A DNA stretch of 5,175 nucleotides from a virus (taxonomy: Duplodnaviria > Heunggongvirae > Uroviricota > Caudoviricetes), in the IMG/VR virus record IMGVR_UViG_2537562091_000002; one strand, given 5' to 3'. Shown here in pieces: positions 1 to 5,175 of this stretch (its first letter is position 1; each line of letters begins with the position of its first letter). The notes beneath the pieces were generated by a model. That model was given only the letters and a program-made list of their open reading frames with translations, did not search any database and had not been told where the DNA came from. The position numbers were made by a program, and so were the translations under genes.

Positions 1-195
1 CCTGTCATACGCGTAAAACAGCCAGCGCTGGCGCGATTTAGCCCCGACATAGCCCCACTGTTCGTCCATTTCCGCGCAGACGATGACGTCACTGCCCGGC
101 TGTATGCGCGAGGTTACCGACTGCGGCCTGAGTTTTTTAAGTGACGTAAAATCGTGTTGAGGCCAACGCCCATAATGCGGGCTGTTGCCCGGCAT
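1..195 (-). CDS. insB: IS1 InsB, 5' part only (65 codons; 3' end lies beyond the window)
   Basis: Minus-strand ATG at 193-195, then [65 protein letters not shown] to position 1; overlaps insA in another frame as in canonical IS1. Confidence 0.8.
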
Positions 196-389
196 CCAAC
201 GCCATTCATGGCCATATCAATGATTTTCTGGTGCGTACCGGGTTGAGAAGCGGTGTAAGTGAACTGCAGTTGCCATGTTTTACGGCAGTGAGAGCAGAGA
301 TAGCGCTGATGTCCGGCAGTGCTTTTGCCGTTACGCACCACCCCGTCAGTAGCTGAACAGGAGGGACAGCTGATAGAAACAGAAGCCAC
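114..389 (-). CDS. insA: IS1 InsA (transposition regulator / N-terminal part of the InsAB' transposase), GTG start
   Basis: 91-aa translation [40 protein letters not shown]...LKNSGRSR matches recalled IS1 InsA throughout; stop TAA at 114-116. Confidence 0.95.
132..138 (-). other. IS1 A6C slippery run (programmed -1 frameshift site producing InsAB')
   Basis: Minus strand reads TTAAAAAACTC here, at the insA/insB overlap. The role of this motif in IS1 is established knowledge. Confidence 0.7.
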
Positions 390-421
390 TGGAGCACCTC
401 AAAAACACCATCATACACTAA

Positions 422-444
422 ATCAGTAAGTTGGCAGCATCACC
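422..444. repeat. IS1 terminal inverted repeat (insA-proximal end)
   Basis: ATCAGTAAGTTGGCAGCATCACC is the exact reverse complement of the recalled 23-bp IS1 IR. Confidence 0.85.
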
Positions 445-517
445 CAACACCCGATACTTTTTCCTGGCTTCCAGCAACGGGGTTTCTTCCTCCGTTGCAT
501 ATACAGCTCACCTTTTT

Positions 518-811
518 TCACCCACGATTAACCAACAGCCAGATCAGCAGACACGCCACCACCGGCACAGCAAAATCCATCAGGCTTGCCACATCCCAAA
601 CACGCGGATCAAAACCGCCCCACCACGGCATGTTAATCCGCTTGCCATGCCCGAACATTTCAATCCAGCGATATTCTGCCTGGGTGTGTTCACGCGCAAT
701 GAAGAACGTACAACCAGCTATCGCCCCATAAGCCCAGTTTCCGGTAAAAAGACCAACCAGTGTCTGCGCAGCCACAGCACAAAGCGCATGAAGAAAAGGT
801 GTTATATCCAT
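518..811 (-). CDS. Small predicted membrane protein (97 aa), function unknown; last gene of the post-fibre cassette
   Basis: ORF with ATG at 809-811 preceded by AGGAGGAG immediately after the upstream stop. Hydrophobic stretches FLHALCAVAAQTLVGLF, WAYGAIAGCTFFIA and FAVPVVACLLIWLLV flank a charged loop containing WWGGFDPRVWD. No family recognised by eye. Confidence 0.6.
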   Translation of the reverse strand: MDITPFLHALCAVAAQTLVGLFTGNWAYGAIAGCTFFIAREHTQAEYRWIEMFGHGKRINMPWWGGFDPRVWDVASLMDFAVPVVACLLIWLLVNRG

Positions 812-821
812 TACTCCTCCT

Positions 822-1526
822 TTATCTAATATCGCTTCGGGAAGTTAATAACAACTTTAATTCTGACTCAAGTTCATCAACTCTTTCAGTCAGTTTCTGG
901 ATATGGTGAATCAGTGGAACAACCAGACGTTCGTACATTACACCTTCGGCAACAAGGCCATTGCTGGAAATAGCTTCAGGAGCATCATCTTCGTTAGCTG
1001 GTCGCCAGTGTACAAACTGAGGAGCAATTTCTCCTACTTCCTCGGCAATCAATCCGTAGAATCCCCAGTCACGCCTGTCATTTTCGCATTGCGACCTGTA
1101 CCACACAGGGCGCATCCTGAAAATGAGATCGGCGTGCTCTGAATCTATTGTCTCTACTGAATGTTTATAGCGGATAGACGATGTTGACCGCAGCACAGAC
1201 GAAATTGCAGGGTCAGGATTAAGATAAAGGTTTGCCGCCGCTGTAGTCGTGGCCAAATTCCATAAATAAAACGCTTCACGACCTGTCAGTGGATAAAAAT
1301 CTCCGCCATAACGACCACTTTCCAGATCGTTCACTTCCACTTTGTTTTTCAGCTTATTATCAACTTCAGTTTTTGTGTATCTGGAGCTGATATCCTGCTT
1401 TGCACTGGTCATCTCAGTCTGAAGCGTTGATACTTTTCTGCTAATTGATGAAATATCTTCCTTAGCTTTACTGACATCCCCCTTTAGCTTGGTGATATCT
1501 CCTGGAATTACTGTCGATGTAGCCAT
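822..1526 (-). CDS. Standalone coiled-coil protein (234 aa) with a C-terminal peptidase-S74-type intramolecular chaperone domain (tail-fibre/tailspike auto-chaperone type)
   Basis: ATG at 1524-1526, with GAGG overlapping the upstream stop 9 nt before it. Residues about 10-65 show 3-4 spaced hydrophobics (heptad pattern). Residues about 116-234 (SSIRYKHSVETID...RPVWYR...GLIAEEVGEIAPQFV...YERLVVPLIHHIQKL...ELESELKLL) fit the recalled S74 IMC consensus (SDrrlK...lrPvsYrY...GliAQEv...). Confidence 0.8.
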   Translation of the reverse strand: MATSTVIPGDITKLKGDVSKAKEDISSISRKVSTLQTEMTSAKQDISSRYTKTEVDNKLKNKVEVNDLESGRYGGDFYPLTGREAFYLWNLATTTAAANLYLNPDPAISSVLRSTSSIRYKHSVETIDSEHADLIFRMRPVWYRSQCENDRRDWGFYGLIAEEVGEIAPQFVHWRPANEDDAPEAISSNGLVAEGVMYERLVVPLIHHIQKLTERVDELESELKLLLTSRSDIR

Positions 1527-1535
1527 TTTCCTGCC

Positions 1536-1817
1536 TCACATCCAGCCACGAAGTTGATGCTCAACAACAACCGCGTATTTATCGAATATTGACGATTTTT
1601 TTGCATCATTAATGATGCGCACGTTTACAAAATATCCGTCTTCCTTAACACATACCGGCTCGCCATCTTCAGTAAGTTCTCCGGTTTCTTTGTACACGTT
1701 ACCTATCACGTCAATAAGAATATCATCCTGCATCGACTCGTCATCATAATAGCCAGCACTCTTCATAAAGGCCGAAAAGTCGGCCTTGTCTGTGAATTTG
1801 ATAATTAAATCTCGCAT
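1536..1817 (-). CDS. Small acidic hypothetical protein (93 aa), translationally coupled to the fibre gene
   Basis: ATG at 1815-1817 overlaps the fibre stop (minus strand reads TAATG); GGGAGAG lies upstream. Asp/Glu-rich product (MRDLIIKFTDKADFSAFMKSAGYYDDESMQDD...). No similarity to Tfa recognised. Confidence 0.6.
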   Translation of the reverse strand: MRDLIIKFTDKADFSAFMKSAGYYDDESMQDDILIDVIGNVYKETGELTEDGEPVCVKEDGYFVNVRIINDAKKSSIFDKYAVVVEHQLRGWM

Positions 1818-3784
1818 TATATTATCTCTCCCATTTGCGCATCGGTTAATTCTTTATGCCATATTCTAAAATTCCTGATATAACCAAATAAATGACGTAA
1901 GCCGGCTGTAGTCTGGCCTCCAATCCTTATACCTGTAGCACCACTAACACTCTTCCACGTTGTTGATGCTGGTGTTGATAAAACCCCATTGCAGCCAGCC
2001 TGAAACTTGCCATCGCTTTTTATTCTATATACAGCGATAATCTTTCTTGGGTAATTTCCAGGTGGAAATGATATTGGATTACCAAATTGAACATATGGAG
2101 TTCCTACACTACCTGCTGTATTTCTGAATGCAAAAACAAAAGCGTCGTCTTTTGTTTTAAATCCTGTTATATCATAAATTCTAGGCGCGGAATTTGGTGC
2201 CATAGACCAATTTTTATTCACTTCAACCATGCAGGTTAAAGGTTTGCTGGCCATGTTATTTTTACAAGGCAATGTAACAATATCGCTTGCTCGCGTTGAT
2301 GCAACTGTATCGGAAATGATAAAAGATGATGCGCATGAGCCGCCTTCAAATTGTGGTGTCGTAACATCCAAATATTCCCCGCCCAAATAAGTTCCAGGTG
2401 AAACAGGTGGAGCAATTTGGATCTGAGAGCCAACCATATTATCAATAGCTTCAGATTGATATGTAACCTCGAAATAAATCCATCCATTAGATTCTTTCTC
2501 CGCTCGGGCGGTTATTCTTGCAGCCCCTCCTCCCGTTTTCCTAATGGACATATCTGTTATATTAAGATATGCATCTGCCAGATAAAAATATGCGGACCCG
2601 TCATATCTTTCAAATCTTATACGACATTGTATATTAGCACTATCGCTTTTTACACGACATGATGTTGTAACATACTTTTCAGTTCCAGTAACATCGACAC
2701 CTCTTCCTCCTGAAACCGCAGCGATATTCATTGTCGTATTTGTCCCAATTTTTTCGTCCTTTATTTGAAACCGCCCATAAGTAAAGCCAAACTCATCAAC
2801 ACCACTTTCTGTTATAGTTACACTTGTTGTAGCTCCCCACTTAGATGGCGTAAGTGAATTAAGATGATAGTTGGTTCTTTGTCCTTCAATCAGCAAACCT
2901 TCTCGTTCAAATCGCGGTTCGTCAACTTCAGCAACGGTTAATACTCCTGATTTATTAATGTATGTTGCACCTGATGCGCGTTTGAAGCTAACAACCTTAT
3001 CGGATGGCATTTTAATAACATCATCACCTACAGTTATTTGCTTATAACCAGGCGAAAAGCCAGCAAGCATATCCAGTGAATCGTTAAACGGTATCCACAC
3101 ATCGGGAAGCGGCTGCAAAACTTGTTTATACGGCTCCGCAGCCTGGCTTGCATACTCTCTGGCTGCGTCTTCACTTGCTTTTGCAGCCGTCTGGCTTGCA
3201 GCGGATGCTTTCGCCGAGTTAGCCGCCGCAGTCTCGCTCGCCTTTGCGTTGGTTTCACTGGTTTTTGCAGCTTTTTGACTGTTGGCTGATGCAGTGGCAG
3301 AAGAAGCCGCCGCACTTGCAGAACCAGCTGCGGCACTCTCGCTTTGGGCCGCTGCATCCTGACTGTTTTTCGCCGCAGTTTCGCTGGCTTTGGCATTCGT
3401 TTCGCTGGTCTTCGCTGCCGTCTGGCTGGACTTTGCGTTAGTTTCGCTCGTCTTCGCTGCTTTCTGGCTGTTAGCTGCAGCAGTTGCTGATCCAGCTGCT
3501 GAAGTCGCAGAACCGGCTGCCGCACTCTCGCTTTCGGCTGCTGCAGCCTGACTGCTTTTCGCCGCAGTTTCACTGGTTTTGGCATTCGTTTCGCTTGTTT
3601 TCGCTGCCGCCTGGCTGGACTTTGCGTTGGTTTCGCTCGTCTTTGCTGCTGTCTCGCTATTTTTCGCGTTGTTTTCTGATTTTTTAGCTGCTGTCGCGGA
3701 GTTTGCCGATGCAGTCTGCGAGGCCGCTGCCGCCTGTGCGCTGTTAACCTGAATCGGTTCGTGCTGCCTTTGCGGTTTCCTGAT
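1817..3784 (-). CDS. Side tail fibre protein (Stf family), N-terminally truncated remnant. Open frame 3784-1817 with no canonical start; the only start candidate is TTG at 3116-3118. C-terminal LamG/concanavalin-A-like lectin-type domain.
   Basis: Manual translation of the frame continuous with the 1817..3118 ORF stays open up to TGA at 3785-3787. Residues upstream of 3118 read ...AAKTSETNAKASETAAKNSQDAAAQSESAAAGSA..., typical of lambda Stf-type shaft repeats. The C-terminus ...IGGQTTAGLRHLFGYIRNFRIWHKELTDAQMGEII fits the LamG signature (IGG...G.IDEVRIYNRALSAEEI). Confidence 0.8.
   Translation of the reverse strand: MRKPQRQHEPIQVNSAQAAAASQTASANSATAAKKSENNAKNSETAAKTSETNAKSSQAAAKTSETNAKTSETAAKSSQAAAAESESAAAGSATSAAGSATAAANSQKAAKTSETNAKSSQTAAKTSETNAKASETAAKNSQDAAAQSESAAAGSASAAASSATASANSQKAAKTSETNAKASETAAANSAKASAASQTAAKASEDAAREYASQAAEPYKQVLQPLPDVWIPFNDSLDMLAGFSPGYKQITVGDDVIKMPSDKVVSFKRASGATYINKSGVLTVAEVDEPRFEREGLLIEGQRTNYHLNSLTPSKWGATTSVTITESGVDEFGFTYGRFQIKDEKIGTNTTMNIAAVSGGRGVDVTGTEKYVTTSCRVKSDSANIQCRIRFERYDGSAYFYLADAYLNITDMSIRKTGGGAARITARAEKESNGWIYFEVTYQSEAIDNMVGSQIQIAPPVSPGTYLGGEYLDVTTPQFEGGSCASSFIISDTVASTRASDIVTLPCKNNMASKPLTCMVEVNKNWSMAPNSAPRIYDITGFKTKDDAFVFAFRNTAGSVGTPYVQFGNPISFPPGNYPRKIIAVYRIKSDGKFQAGCNGVLSTPASTTWKSVSGATGIRIGGQTTAGLRHLFGYIRNFRIWHKELTDAQMGEII
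3240..3720. repeat. In-frame tandem direct repeat, period 189 bp (63 codons), about 2.5 copies, encoding the fibre shaft low-complexity repeats
   Basis: Near-identical blocks start at 3321 and 3510 (GAACCAGCTGCGGCACTCTCGCTTTGGGCC... vs GAACCGGCTGCCGCACTCTCGCTTTCGGCT...). The sub-motif CTTTGCGTT.GTTTC.CT.GT recurs near 3242, 3431 and 3621. Confidence 0.85.
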
Positions 3785-3791
3785 TCAGCAT
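3744..3791 (-). pseudogene. 15-codon stub (MLNQETAKAARTDSG*), interpreted as the remnant 5' end of the gene after nu1 (terminase large subunit by position)
   Basis: ATG overlaps the nu1 stop as TAATG and is preceded by AGGAGGAG. The frame stops after 15 codons exactly where the Stf-type repeat sequence begins. Too short to identify by sequence; the call rests on position. Confidence 0.35.
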
Positions 3792-4285
3792 TACTCCTCC
3801 TGCTGTAATTCCTCCTCATCATCCGCACCTGCTTCAGTCACCCGCAGGGCTATCTGATCGCGCAGATCATCAATAATGGACTGAACACGGCTCACAGCGG
3901 CAGGCTGCAGACCGCAGTCACGTTCAAGAATATCCGGTAATGTCTCCAGCACCTGCACGACCGCTTTTGCCCAGATGGCAAACTCCCGTCTGACATCACT
4001 GGCCGGAATGAGTTGTGCCGTTTCCTGTTCGAACTTAAGACGCTCACGTTCAGACTGATACCAGGCTTTGCGCTCATGCGCGTCCATTTCGCCTTCTGCA
4101 ACCGGCGGTGGTAATGCCAGAAATGCCGACACAATATCAACCACCCGATAAAGCTTGAGGTTGCTTTCATGCCCCCCTGCAACGGGTAGATTTTGCAGCC
4201 TTGCCGCAGCAGTCTGGCGATGTACACCTGACAATGCCGCCAGTTGACTGATATTCAGCGTCAGATTTTTTAACTCTCGATCCAT
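3791..4285 (-). CDS. Terminase small subunit, lambda Nu1 / Noh family (164 aa)
   Basis: ATG at 4283-4285 with GGAG 7 nt upstream. N-terminal HTH-like segment LNISQLAALSGVHRQTAAARL parallels lambda Nu1 KKQLADIFGASIRTIQNWQ. Sits about 175 bp downstream of a cosN-like site, as in lambda. Confidence 0.85.
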   Translation of the reverse strand: MDRELKNLTLNISQLAALSGVHRQTAAARLQNLPVAGGHESNLKLYRVVDIVSAFLALPPPVAEGEMDAHERKAWYQSERERLKFEQETAQLIPASDVRREFAIWAKAVVQVLETLPDILERDCGLQPAAVSRVQSIIDDLRDQIALRVTEAGADDEEELQQEE

Positions 4286-4500: not shown

Positions 4501-4718
4501 CGACAGCCTGACAACCGTGACGAGCATCTGTAACAGAGCTTTACATAATGGCATGGGGATAATTCAGAAGGACATCACAGCATGCCCACACAAATTAGTG
4601 TGAGTGTCCTGTTTCTTACTACGCGCAGGACTGACGAGCATGAGGGGAAAATACGAGAAACGAAATGCCTTATCTTCAGAAATGCAGCCGGCATCCGAAC
4701 TGGACGATATTGTAAATT

Positions 4719-4757
4719 TGATCTTACCCAGCAATAGTGGACACGCGGCTAAGTGAG
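4719..4757. repeat. IS3 left terminal inverted repeat (approximate extent)
   Basis: Element terminus begins with TG at 4719; the roughly 39-bp IR length is recalled, not measured. Confidence 0.6.
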
Positions 4758-4783
4758 TAAACTCTCAGTCAGAGGTGACTCAC

Positions 4784-5083
4784 ATGACAAAAACAGTATC
4801 AACCAGTAAAAAACCCCGTAAACAGCATTCGCCTGAATTTCGCAGTGAAGCCCTGAAGCTTGCTGAACGCATCGGTGTTACTGCCGCAGCCCGTGAACTC
4901 AGCCTGTATGAATCACAGCTCTACAACTGGCGCAGTAAACAGCAAAATCAGCAGACGTCTTCTGAACGTGAACTGGAGATGTCTACCGAGATTGCACGTC
5001 TCAAACGCCAGCTGGCAGAACGGGATGAAGAGCTGGCTATCCTCCAAAAGGCCGCGACATACTTCGCGAAGCGCCTGAAATGA
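4784..5083 (+). CDS. insE: IS3 OrfA (InsE). The ORF track starts at GTG 4775; the canonical ATG is at 4784 with AGAGG upstream.
   Basis: Translation MTKTVSTSKKPRKQHSPEFRSEALKLAERIGVTAAARELSLYESQLYNWRSKQQNQ...ATYFAKRLK matches recalled InsE. The CCAAAAG slippery motif lies at about 5043-5049. Confidence 0.9.
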   Translation: MTKTVSTSKKPRKQHSPEFRSEALKLAERIGVTAAARELSLYESQLYNWRSKQQNQQTSSERELEMSTEIARLKRQLAERDEELAILQKAATYFAKRLK

Positions 5084-5175
5084 AGTATGTCTTTATTGAA
5101 AACATCAGGCTGAGTTCAGCATCAAAGCAATGTGCCGCGTGCTCCGGGTGGCCCGCAGCGGCTGGTATACGTGGT
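5080..5175 (+). CDS. insF: IS3 OrfB (InsF), 5' part only, with an apparent 1-nt deletion in an A-run (possibly inactivating, possibly a homopolymer sequencing error)
   Basis: ATG at 5080 encodes MKYVFIE in frame 1. The conserved continuation HQAEFSIKAMCRVLRVARSGWYTW is encoded from 5103 in a different frame. The window has GAAAAC where the recalled sequence has GAAAAAC. Confidence 0.7.
   Translation, partial: MKYVFIENIRLSSASKQCAACSGWPAAAGIRG

Follow-up and report, generated by a model that had tools for sequence, protein, structure and literature searches.

The window, as we call the whole stretch of DNA analysed here (5,175 nucleotides, IMG/VR record IMGVR_UViG_2537562091_000002), is a decayed Qin-type lambdoid prophage of Escherichia coli with insertion sequences on both flanks. 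Transcription on the minus strand runs from nohA/nu1 through a shaft/LamG fibre frame, a 93-aa gene and a 234-aa S74 gene to a 97-aa gene, which is the subject of this study. The following features were identified.

1–444: end of an IS1 element, present in place of the tfa'/pinQ side of the locus; from position 445 onwards the DNA is homologous to the B and C strains
114–389, minus strand: insA of IS1
445–517, minus strand: remnant of a tfa (tail-fibre-assembly) gene, the 3' flank of the 97-aa gene, annotated as partial tfa in REL606 and E. coli C
518–811, minus strand: gene for a predicted three-helix membrane protein of 97 aa, a full-length member of PHROG 1443
812–821, minus strand: ribosome-binding site AGGAGG with a 4-nt spacer
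822–1526, minus strand: 234-aa tail-fibre C-terminal ORF with a Peptidase_S74 intramolecular-chaperone domain
1536–1817, minus strand: 93-aa acidic protein of PHROG 1361, companion of LamG-ended fibre genes
1817–3778, minus strand: N-terminally truncated side-tail-fibre frame with repeat shaft and LamG head (positions 359–793 of PHROG 1419)
3791–4285, minus strand: Nu1/NohA-like terminase small subunit (DUF1441, PHROG 141)
4775–5083, plus strand: orfA of IS3

In E. coli B REL606 and in E. coli C, the Qin region matches positions 445 to 3746 with 99.8–99.97% identity. The shaft and the 433-aa LamG ORF form a single open frame (1817–3790, minus strand), which abuts the stop codon of nohA/nu1 and contains no ATG, GTG or TTG until position 3118. 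Since it lacks a start codon, the side-tail-fibre frame is an N-terminally truncated pseudogene. E. coli C carries an intact side-tail-fibre gene of 792 aa, with lom and a J fragment before it. The 264-aa Arg-rich ORF at 3034–3828 is the wrong frame of Ala/Ser/Thr/Lys repeats, and secondary BLAST alignments reveal internal direct repeats in the shaft (3224–3661), which are offset by 189 nt and match at about 83% over 249 nt. IS1 occupies window positions 1–444 and IS3 lies on the opposite side (4714–5175); at least 80% of the window is covered in only two genomes. The nohA gene is fused beside the fibre shaft as in K-12, unlike in the B and C strains, and the window thus mixes both Qin arrangements.

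The gene at the position of the 234-aa S74 ORF (822–1526) encodes 343 aa in the lambdoid phage HannyBb and 346 aa in Escherichia ruysiae (locus L089). The S74 genes of the window and of HannyBb share no nucleotide similarity, and the genes on either side are 89–95% identical; judged by this comparison, the S74 fibre position looks like a hotspot for cassette replacement. The 93-aa protein of PHROG 1361 follows every LamG-ended fibre gene seen and is probably a fibre-specific chaperone or adaptor. Elsewhere it was located at 4994–5278 and 6601–6888 of locus L161 and at 5636–5917 of locus L159, and a P1-like Leclercia element carries the 93-aa-type gene twice, in tandem pairs of fibre and small gene.

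The 97-aa ORF is intact at 518–811 on the minus strand and starts with ATG, as described in the first-pass annotation of this DNA. The very strong ribosome-binding site reported there was also found: the TAA stop codon of the upstream gene is followed by AGGAGG, AGTA and the ATG, which gives a gap of 10 nt and a spacer of 4 nt. As the ribosome-binding site occupies this entire gap, co-transcription with the upstream gene is implied. The frame evolves under purifying selection. Among 48 distinct alleles, dN/dS in the 518–811 frame is 0.146 and the variable sites at the three codon positions number 26, 13 and 54; other reading frames give ratios near or above 2, save the antisense frame that shares third positions. 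The proposal that a fibre operon ends here with the gene of a small membrane protein is borne out by a genuine gene with a fibre ORF directly upstream and with predicted transmembrane helices, for which no characterised housekeeping homologue was found. The product had further been said to be neither Tfa nor an invertase, in agreement with the lack of a Pfam match and with PHROG matches only to the unannotated families 1443 and 34165.

The base composition of the gene (52.4% GC) is indeed nearer to that of the shaft (56%) and nu1 (53%) than to that of the three upstream genes (43.7, 40.8 and 39.9%). From this it had been suggested that the gene may be native to the prophage, which three comparisons do not support. 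The Qin prophage of K-12 (nohA-stfQ-tfaQ-pinQ) does not contain the gene. In E. coli B and C it falls inside the segment, composed of the LamG head, the 93-aa gene, the S74 ORF and the 97-aa gene, that replaces the 3' end of stfQ and the 5' end of tfaQ and leaves a 111-nt tfa remnant before pinQ. Furthermore, free lambdoid phages carry the unit 445–823, with 95% identity, after fibre genes that are unrelated. The GC step is a mosaic junction at the gene start, between parts of a fibre cassette with differing history, and not a boundary between native and acquired DNA.

The limits of this unit bear on its expression. Against HannyBb and the lambdoid phage 4A7, a nucleotide identity of about 95% extends from 445 to 812–823, covering the 97-aa gene and the 73-nt tfa remnant. 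The block ends at the start codon or the ribosome-binding site, and the neighbouring S74 fibre genes show no detectable nucleotide similarity. In P22-like phages only the gene body (569–811) is conserved, at 85–91%. Since conservation sets in only at the ribosome-binding site or start codon, the gene brings no promoter with it, and neither a promoter nor a terminator motif was found beside it in the window. Thus, expression must depend on transcription of the upstream fibre gene. With the upstream fibre truncated and the prophage cryptic, the copy in the window may be silent though intact.

Hydrophobic segments around a short charged loop had been noticed in the translation, and the Kyte–Doolittle profile (19 residues) agrees with this. 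One strong peak (2.33, centred at residue 85) and two moderate ones (1.61 at residue 12 and 1.19 at residue 30) are observed, helix 2 being marginally hydrophobic; the charged loop comprises residues 40–73 and includes WWGGFDPRVWD. AlphaFold2, run on a 27-sequence alignment, predicts with confidence a fold of three helices (residues 4–23, 26–53 and 74–96; mean pLDDT 92.9, pTM 0.77). By hydropathy and AlphaFold2 together, the protein has the bilayer-spanning hydrophobic helices of an integral membrane protein. Its N-terminus, MDITPFLHAL, contains neither a signal peptide nor a lipobox, and its C-terminal tail, NRG, has three residues and one charge.

The orientation in the membrane, which would be the inner membrane, can be argued both ways. 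The mean number of Lys and Arg residues in the family is 0.74 at the N-terminus, 0.08 in loop 1, 5.3 in loop 2 and 0.78 at the C-terminus, and by the positive-inside rule these counts place the N-terminus and the conserved loop in the cytoplasm. The opposite orientation is favoured by the homologue P0158, the only distant homologue with a canonical lipoprotein signal peptide right before helix 1, and by the long basic C-terminal tails of several homologues. Most other homologues with N-terminal extensions are frameshift or fusion artefacts and carry no topology information. Judged by helical periodicity, the conserved residues H8, A12, Q16, G20 and G24, the residues G29, G33, F37 and E41, and the residues S76, D79 and P83 would fall on one face of each helix. 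On this basis, a polar cluster of H8, R40/E41/Q44 and S76/D79 would be situated near one membrane interface.

The match to PHROG 1443, a family without functional annotation, is full-length (residues 1–96 against profile positions 1–96 of 97, E = 2.7e-58). A word-indexed search returned 579 database homologues, all labelled hypothetical, from Escherichia, Salmonella, Citrobacter, Enterobacter, Leclercia, Aeromonas and Comamonas. Among 1.84 billion representative proteins, a profile search yielded 431 clusters, all of proteins with 58–146 aa, and no domain fusion. In a 74-sequence alignment E41 and W72 are invariant, H8, R40, Q44, A45, E46 and P83 are conserved to at least 90%, and D79 to 81%. 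The conserved core comprises H8, Q16, R40-E41-x-x-Q44-A45-E46-Y-R-W-I, R58, MPWWGGFD, W72, D79 and P83, and the loop consensus reads GRE-x-x-QAEYRWI ... G-x-G-x-R-x-NMPWWGGFDPRVW. In a subfamily (P0144, P0194 and P0258) an acidic, aromatic-rich stretch of about 45 residues is inserted into the loop between FG-x-G and NMPWWGG, which suggests that the conserved loop tolerates or uses an extra soluble module.

Pfam and NCBIfam scans of the 97-aa protein gave no match, and no PADLOC defence model matched it at E ≤ 1. The profile found a single match among PDB sequences, with E = 0.2, and Foldseek searches of PDB and BFVD returned nothing at E ≤ 0.001. Across Pfam, PHROG, NCBIfam, PADLOC, PDB and BFVD there was no homology to known exclusion, conversion or defence proteins; neither was any similarity found to known enzyme, transporter or metal-binding families. 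No Pfam match to a GtrA-like four-TM domain or to an acyltransferase domain was obtained for the 97-aa protein or for 74 family members. When these 74 members were scanned against Pfam at E ≤ 1, the outcome was a scatter of sub-threshold matches to transmembrane families, with the PhoR N-terminus in six members, VirB3 in four and cytochrome b561 in three, which were judged compositional. CPBP/Rce1 proteases, PAP2 and BacA phosphatases and DUF3307, as well as SdhC/D, NuoK, MerT and colicin immunity proteins, were considered and set aside, as their motifs do not seem to fit.

In about ten phage architectures (lambda-, P22-, P2-, HP1-, P1- and T1-like, and others), the gene comes immediately after one that encodes a tail fibre or tailspike. 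The contexts are listed here with their gene orders.

Lambdoid HannyBb: J, 790-aa LamG tail protein, 93-aa gene, 343-aa S74 fibre, 97-aa homologue, then convergent invertase and int
Lambdoid 4A7: tail protein, IS element, 93-aa gene, 97-aa homologue, sitABCD cargo, int
Lambdoid Citrobacter prophage: GpJ, pectate-lyase spike, PHROG 1443 gene, prophage end
P22-like JEP4: tailspike whose stop overlaps the start of the PHROG 1443 gene, int next
P22-like 611R6: tailspike, OafA-type O-acetylase, 37-aa S74 fibre remnant, PHROG 1443 gene, int
P2-like Enterobacter prophage: fibre, 71-aa gene, PHROG 1443 gene
HP1/P2-like Leclercia prophage: 939-aa S74 fibre, PHROG 1443 gene with zero gap
P1-like Leclercia element: two pairs of LamG fibre and 94/95-aa gene, PHROG 1443 gene, 104-aa gene, LydB, DarA
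160-kb Salmonella contig (multi-tailspike element): PHROG 1443 gene flanked by two pectate-lyase tailspikes
Comamonas prophage: 2520-aa J-like protein, 72-aa gene, PHROG 1443 gene
Phage HC6 (T1-sized): 860-aa protein directly followed by an unannotated partial homologue, at the end of the structural module
Aeromonas phage: PHROG 1443 gene convergent with the tailspike

There are two exceptions: the relative in a jumbo Aeromonas phage comes after a helicase/terminase-like gene, and that of phage 4_4512 sits between a 698-aa protein and gp10. In 4A7 (locus L002, 9386–12835) the sitABCD iron/manganese transporter operon directly follows the 97-aa gene, and the IS element splits the fibre module. 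The slot in the P2-like Enterobacter prophage is the G and Z/fun slot of P2. The slot between tailspike and int in P22-like phages is the one that holds the conversion genes gtrABC in P22, oac in Sf6 and neuO in CUS-3.

The linkage to receptor-binding genes is strong on a larger scale as well. A relative is encoded at 588 IMG/VR loci, and in 78 of the 79 diverse loci analysed an ORF on the same strand lies upstream. When the proteins of these upstream ORFs were clustered at 60% identity, 30 clusters resulted. The gap to the upstream ORF is between −19 and +50 nt in 23 of the 30; Peptidase_S74 occurs in 11, and others are of endosialidase, pectate-lyase, GDSL or LamG type. Tail fibre, tailspike or tail-protein families account for 21 of the 25 most-hit PHROG families, and the remaining four are unannotated. 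In complete E. coli genomes the gene is present in 1900 of 5426 (35%), with a median of two copies and a maximum of seven, and every E. coli record listed annotates it as hypothetical. Its carriers include E. coli B, C and Nissle strains and at least five major temperate phage lineages.

Relatives also exist outside phages. In a scan of one genome per species, 70 loci were found in Gamma-, Beta- and Alphaproteobacteria and in Desulfovibrio, many of them outside prophages. In Aeromonas the gene follows pirin, a synteny common to four species, and two genes for lipid A acyltransferases lie close by on the opposite strand. The copies of five Leclercia species lie beside a methionine-synthase-like gene and an ABC transporter. 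Three sphingomonads carry it after the NAD-dependent DNA ligase gene ligA, with a gap of 1 nt or an overlap; in Sphingomonas arvum the gap is 1 nt and prmA lies downstream. Further upstream neighbours of cellular copies are DAHP synthase, cyclophilin and cytidine deaminase. Apparently operonic cellular copies, in ligA or pirin contexts, were noted in loci L151 (3933–6282), L152 and L004 (6990–8309). All-against-all clustering of the neighbours in 66 diverse genomic loci gave no conserved partner gene. The non-prophage loci in several genera indicate that the family is cellular as well as viral.

The family was not found in the literature searched on its PHROG identifier, the RefSeq protein accession and the topics of exclusion, tail fibres and membrane proteins; nor did this literature contain the consistent placement behind receptor-binding genes across phage morphotypes. 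Our analysis adds for PHROG 1443 that its genes are linked to those of receptor-binding proteins and that it has a conserved motif, a predicted fold and relatives in cells.

Several known systems resemble the 97-aa protein in part. Cor (phi80, N15, HK022) and Llp (T5) are exclusion lipoproteins encoded beside receptor-binding genes; each blocks one specific outer-membrane receptor, and they vary with the receptor-binding protein. PHROG 1443 proteins are likewise small envelope proteins, by prediction, with genes beside a receptor-binding gene. Unlike these lipoproteins, however, the 97-aa protein without signal peptide and lipobox is predicted to be an integral three-helix protein, and its gene keeps 95% identity where the preceding fibre genes have no nucleotide similarity to each other. 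Since it does not vary with fibre type, whatever the protein does is generic. T4 Imm and HK97 gp15 are small phage-encoded inner-membrane proteins thought to block genome entry. Imm, gp15 and SieA of P22 are each directed at particular groups of phages, and none is known to have conserved homologues in cells. SieA is a small inner-membrane exclusion protein which is also thought to block genome entry (PMC10883804). Exclusion of this kind is the function proposed in the first-pass annotation. The 97-aa protein, with its matches confined to the two PHROG families, has no sequence similarity to Imm, SieA or gp15.

Other likenesses concern the host glycan. D3 Iap and the epsilon15 alpha-polymerase inhibitor are small membrane peptides which trail tailspikes and alter O-antigen synthesis; they act on a host inner-membrane pathway and not on the phage. 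PHROG 1443 proteins are similarly small and hydrophobic and are encoded near glycan-specific tailspikes, but the two peptides are shorter and single-serotype, whereas PHROG 1443 spans 58–146 aa, has an invariant loop and is also present in bacteria without LPS O-antigen. With OafA/Oac, NeuO and GtrABC the family shares the tailspike-int slot of P22-like phages, but at 97 aa the protein is far smaller and has no acyltransferase or GtrA domain. It also differs from class I holins, which have three TM helices, a highly charged C-terminal tail and an adjacent endolysin. Tfa proteins (Caudo_TAP) are soluble, whereas the 97-aa protein is predicted to lie in the membrane, and neither Pfam nor PHROG matches it to Tfa.

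Our preferred reading, which we hold tentatively and on sequence comparison, is that of an envelope-acting accessory protein co-expressed with receptor-binding proteins, with a possible role in superinfection exclusion or receptor conversion. On this view, a small inner-membrane protein of three helices would be passed from phage to phage with its gene at the tail end of receptor-binding cassettes, and these fibre and tailspike cassettes would mostly be glycan-specific. The gene has no promoter of its own, and its coupling to the fibre gene is tight or translational, so that synthesis of the protein probably goes along with that of the fibre or spike, either by late-operon transcription or by read-through. 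The conserved polar cluster at one membrane face (H8, R40, E41, Q44, E46 and D79) and the Trp-rich loop would be the site of action. As the sequence is invariant across fibre types, the target is likely a conserved component of the host envelope and not the fibre or a specific receptor. Most likely, the outcome would be protection of the surface of the infected or lysogenic cell, with phage entry blocked or the display of the glycan receptor altered. The slot in P22-like phages and the adjacent O-acetylase recall receptor-conversion genes, and independence from the fibre type argues against both a fibre-specific chaperone and a receptor-specific mask of the Cor/Llp kind.

The superinfection-exclusion or moron function proposed earlier is plausible and is weakened by the cellular homologues, the very highly conserved loop and the absence of a travelling promoter. 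Homologues in housekeeping neighbourhoods (ligA, pirin, the Leclercia locus) would be unexpected for a dedicated anti-phage exclusion protein, and sphingomonads are not known to have classical LPS. Exclusion proteins usually diverge fast, whereas the loop of this family is nearly invariant. In addition, the lack of its own promoter argues for late expression and not for expression in the lysogen.

A different explanation is that the protein is host-derived and has a general role in ion, metal or lipid-linked chemistry or in envelope homeostasis, being carried by phages as an auxiliary or passenger, with its fibre position a result of cassette exchange and of a conserved recombination anchor. 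The conserved synteny outside phages (four Aeromonas species, Sphingomonas arvum and the Leclercia chromosomal locus), the lack of a conserved partner gene across loci, and the 95% conservation between phages with dissimilar adjoining fibre genes would all fit, as would the conserved residues on one face of each helix, which from helical periodicity may form a binding or catalytic core. Nevertheless, we regard this explanation as unlikely: a fibre or spike linkage that recurs in about ten architectures, often with overlapping stop and start codons, is far tighter than that of ordinary cargo, and no similarity to known enzyme, transporter or metal-binding families was found. The linkage itself could instead mean that the protein associates with the membrane and helps fibres and tailspikes to mature or to be delivered, for instance in the handling of S74-chaperoned fibres at the membrane. 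Translational coupling or close spacing to fibre and spike genes, Peptidase_S74 in 11 of 30 distinct upstream proteins, and the late co-expression implied by the gene position are consistent with this. It is nonetheless improbable, since the protein does not co-vary with fibre type, the gene is found after S74, LamG, pectate-lyase and P22-type spikes alike, no fibre gene lies near the cellular homologues, and many phages of the same fibre types, including K-12 Qin, do without the gene. Moreover, Tfa, gp38, gp57A and the S74 domain itself, which are the known chaperones of fibres, are soluble.

Very improbable, in our judgement, is a lysis-timing protein of holin or antiholin type, or a small pore. 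Small size, three helices and Gly-xxx-Gly spacing (G20, G24, G29, G33) suit such a role; the T7 holin gene 17.5 also trails a fibre gene, and in the P1-like element the gene lies directly upstream of the 104-aa gene and LydB. The similarity to holin Pfam families, however, amounts to a weak single match in one member (E = 0.0036) and none in the 97-aa protein of the window. The three-residue tail with its one charge (family mean 0.78 Lys and Arg) does not resemble the charged tail by which class I holins are marked, the gene has no endolysin neighbour in the lambdoid, P22-like and P2-like contexts, which have their own lysis cassettes, and neither the long invariant loop nor the stable cellular homologues are in keeping with a lysis protein.

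Returning to the envelope-acting accessory, we can frame a more specific version of it, which is doubtful as a whole. PHROG 1443 may represent a hitherto unrecognised, conserved class of inner-membrane proteins that is recruited from a cellular family and co-transferred with glycan-specific cassettes in lambda-, P22-, P2-, P1- and T1-like phages. Such proteins would act on a universal inner-membrane step, such as the handling of lipid-linked glycans or the entry of phage DNA, and would thereby control the susceptibility of the cell surface whatever the fibre.

It often depends on small accessory genes next to those for receptor binding which phages can infect a lysogen and how the cell surface appears. 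If the 97-aa protein controls phage entry or glycan display, host range in phage therapy and prophage-mediated immunity would be affected, and the gene would need attention in the engineering of fibre cassettes, where swaps by homology would bring it along. Should the protein turn out to be a membrane factor that phages have borrowed from cells, it would define a new conserved family of small proteins in Proteobacteria. The abundance of the family makes the answer broadly relevant.
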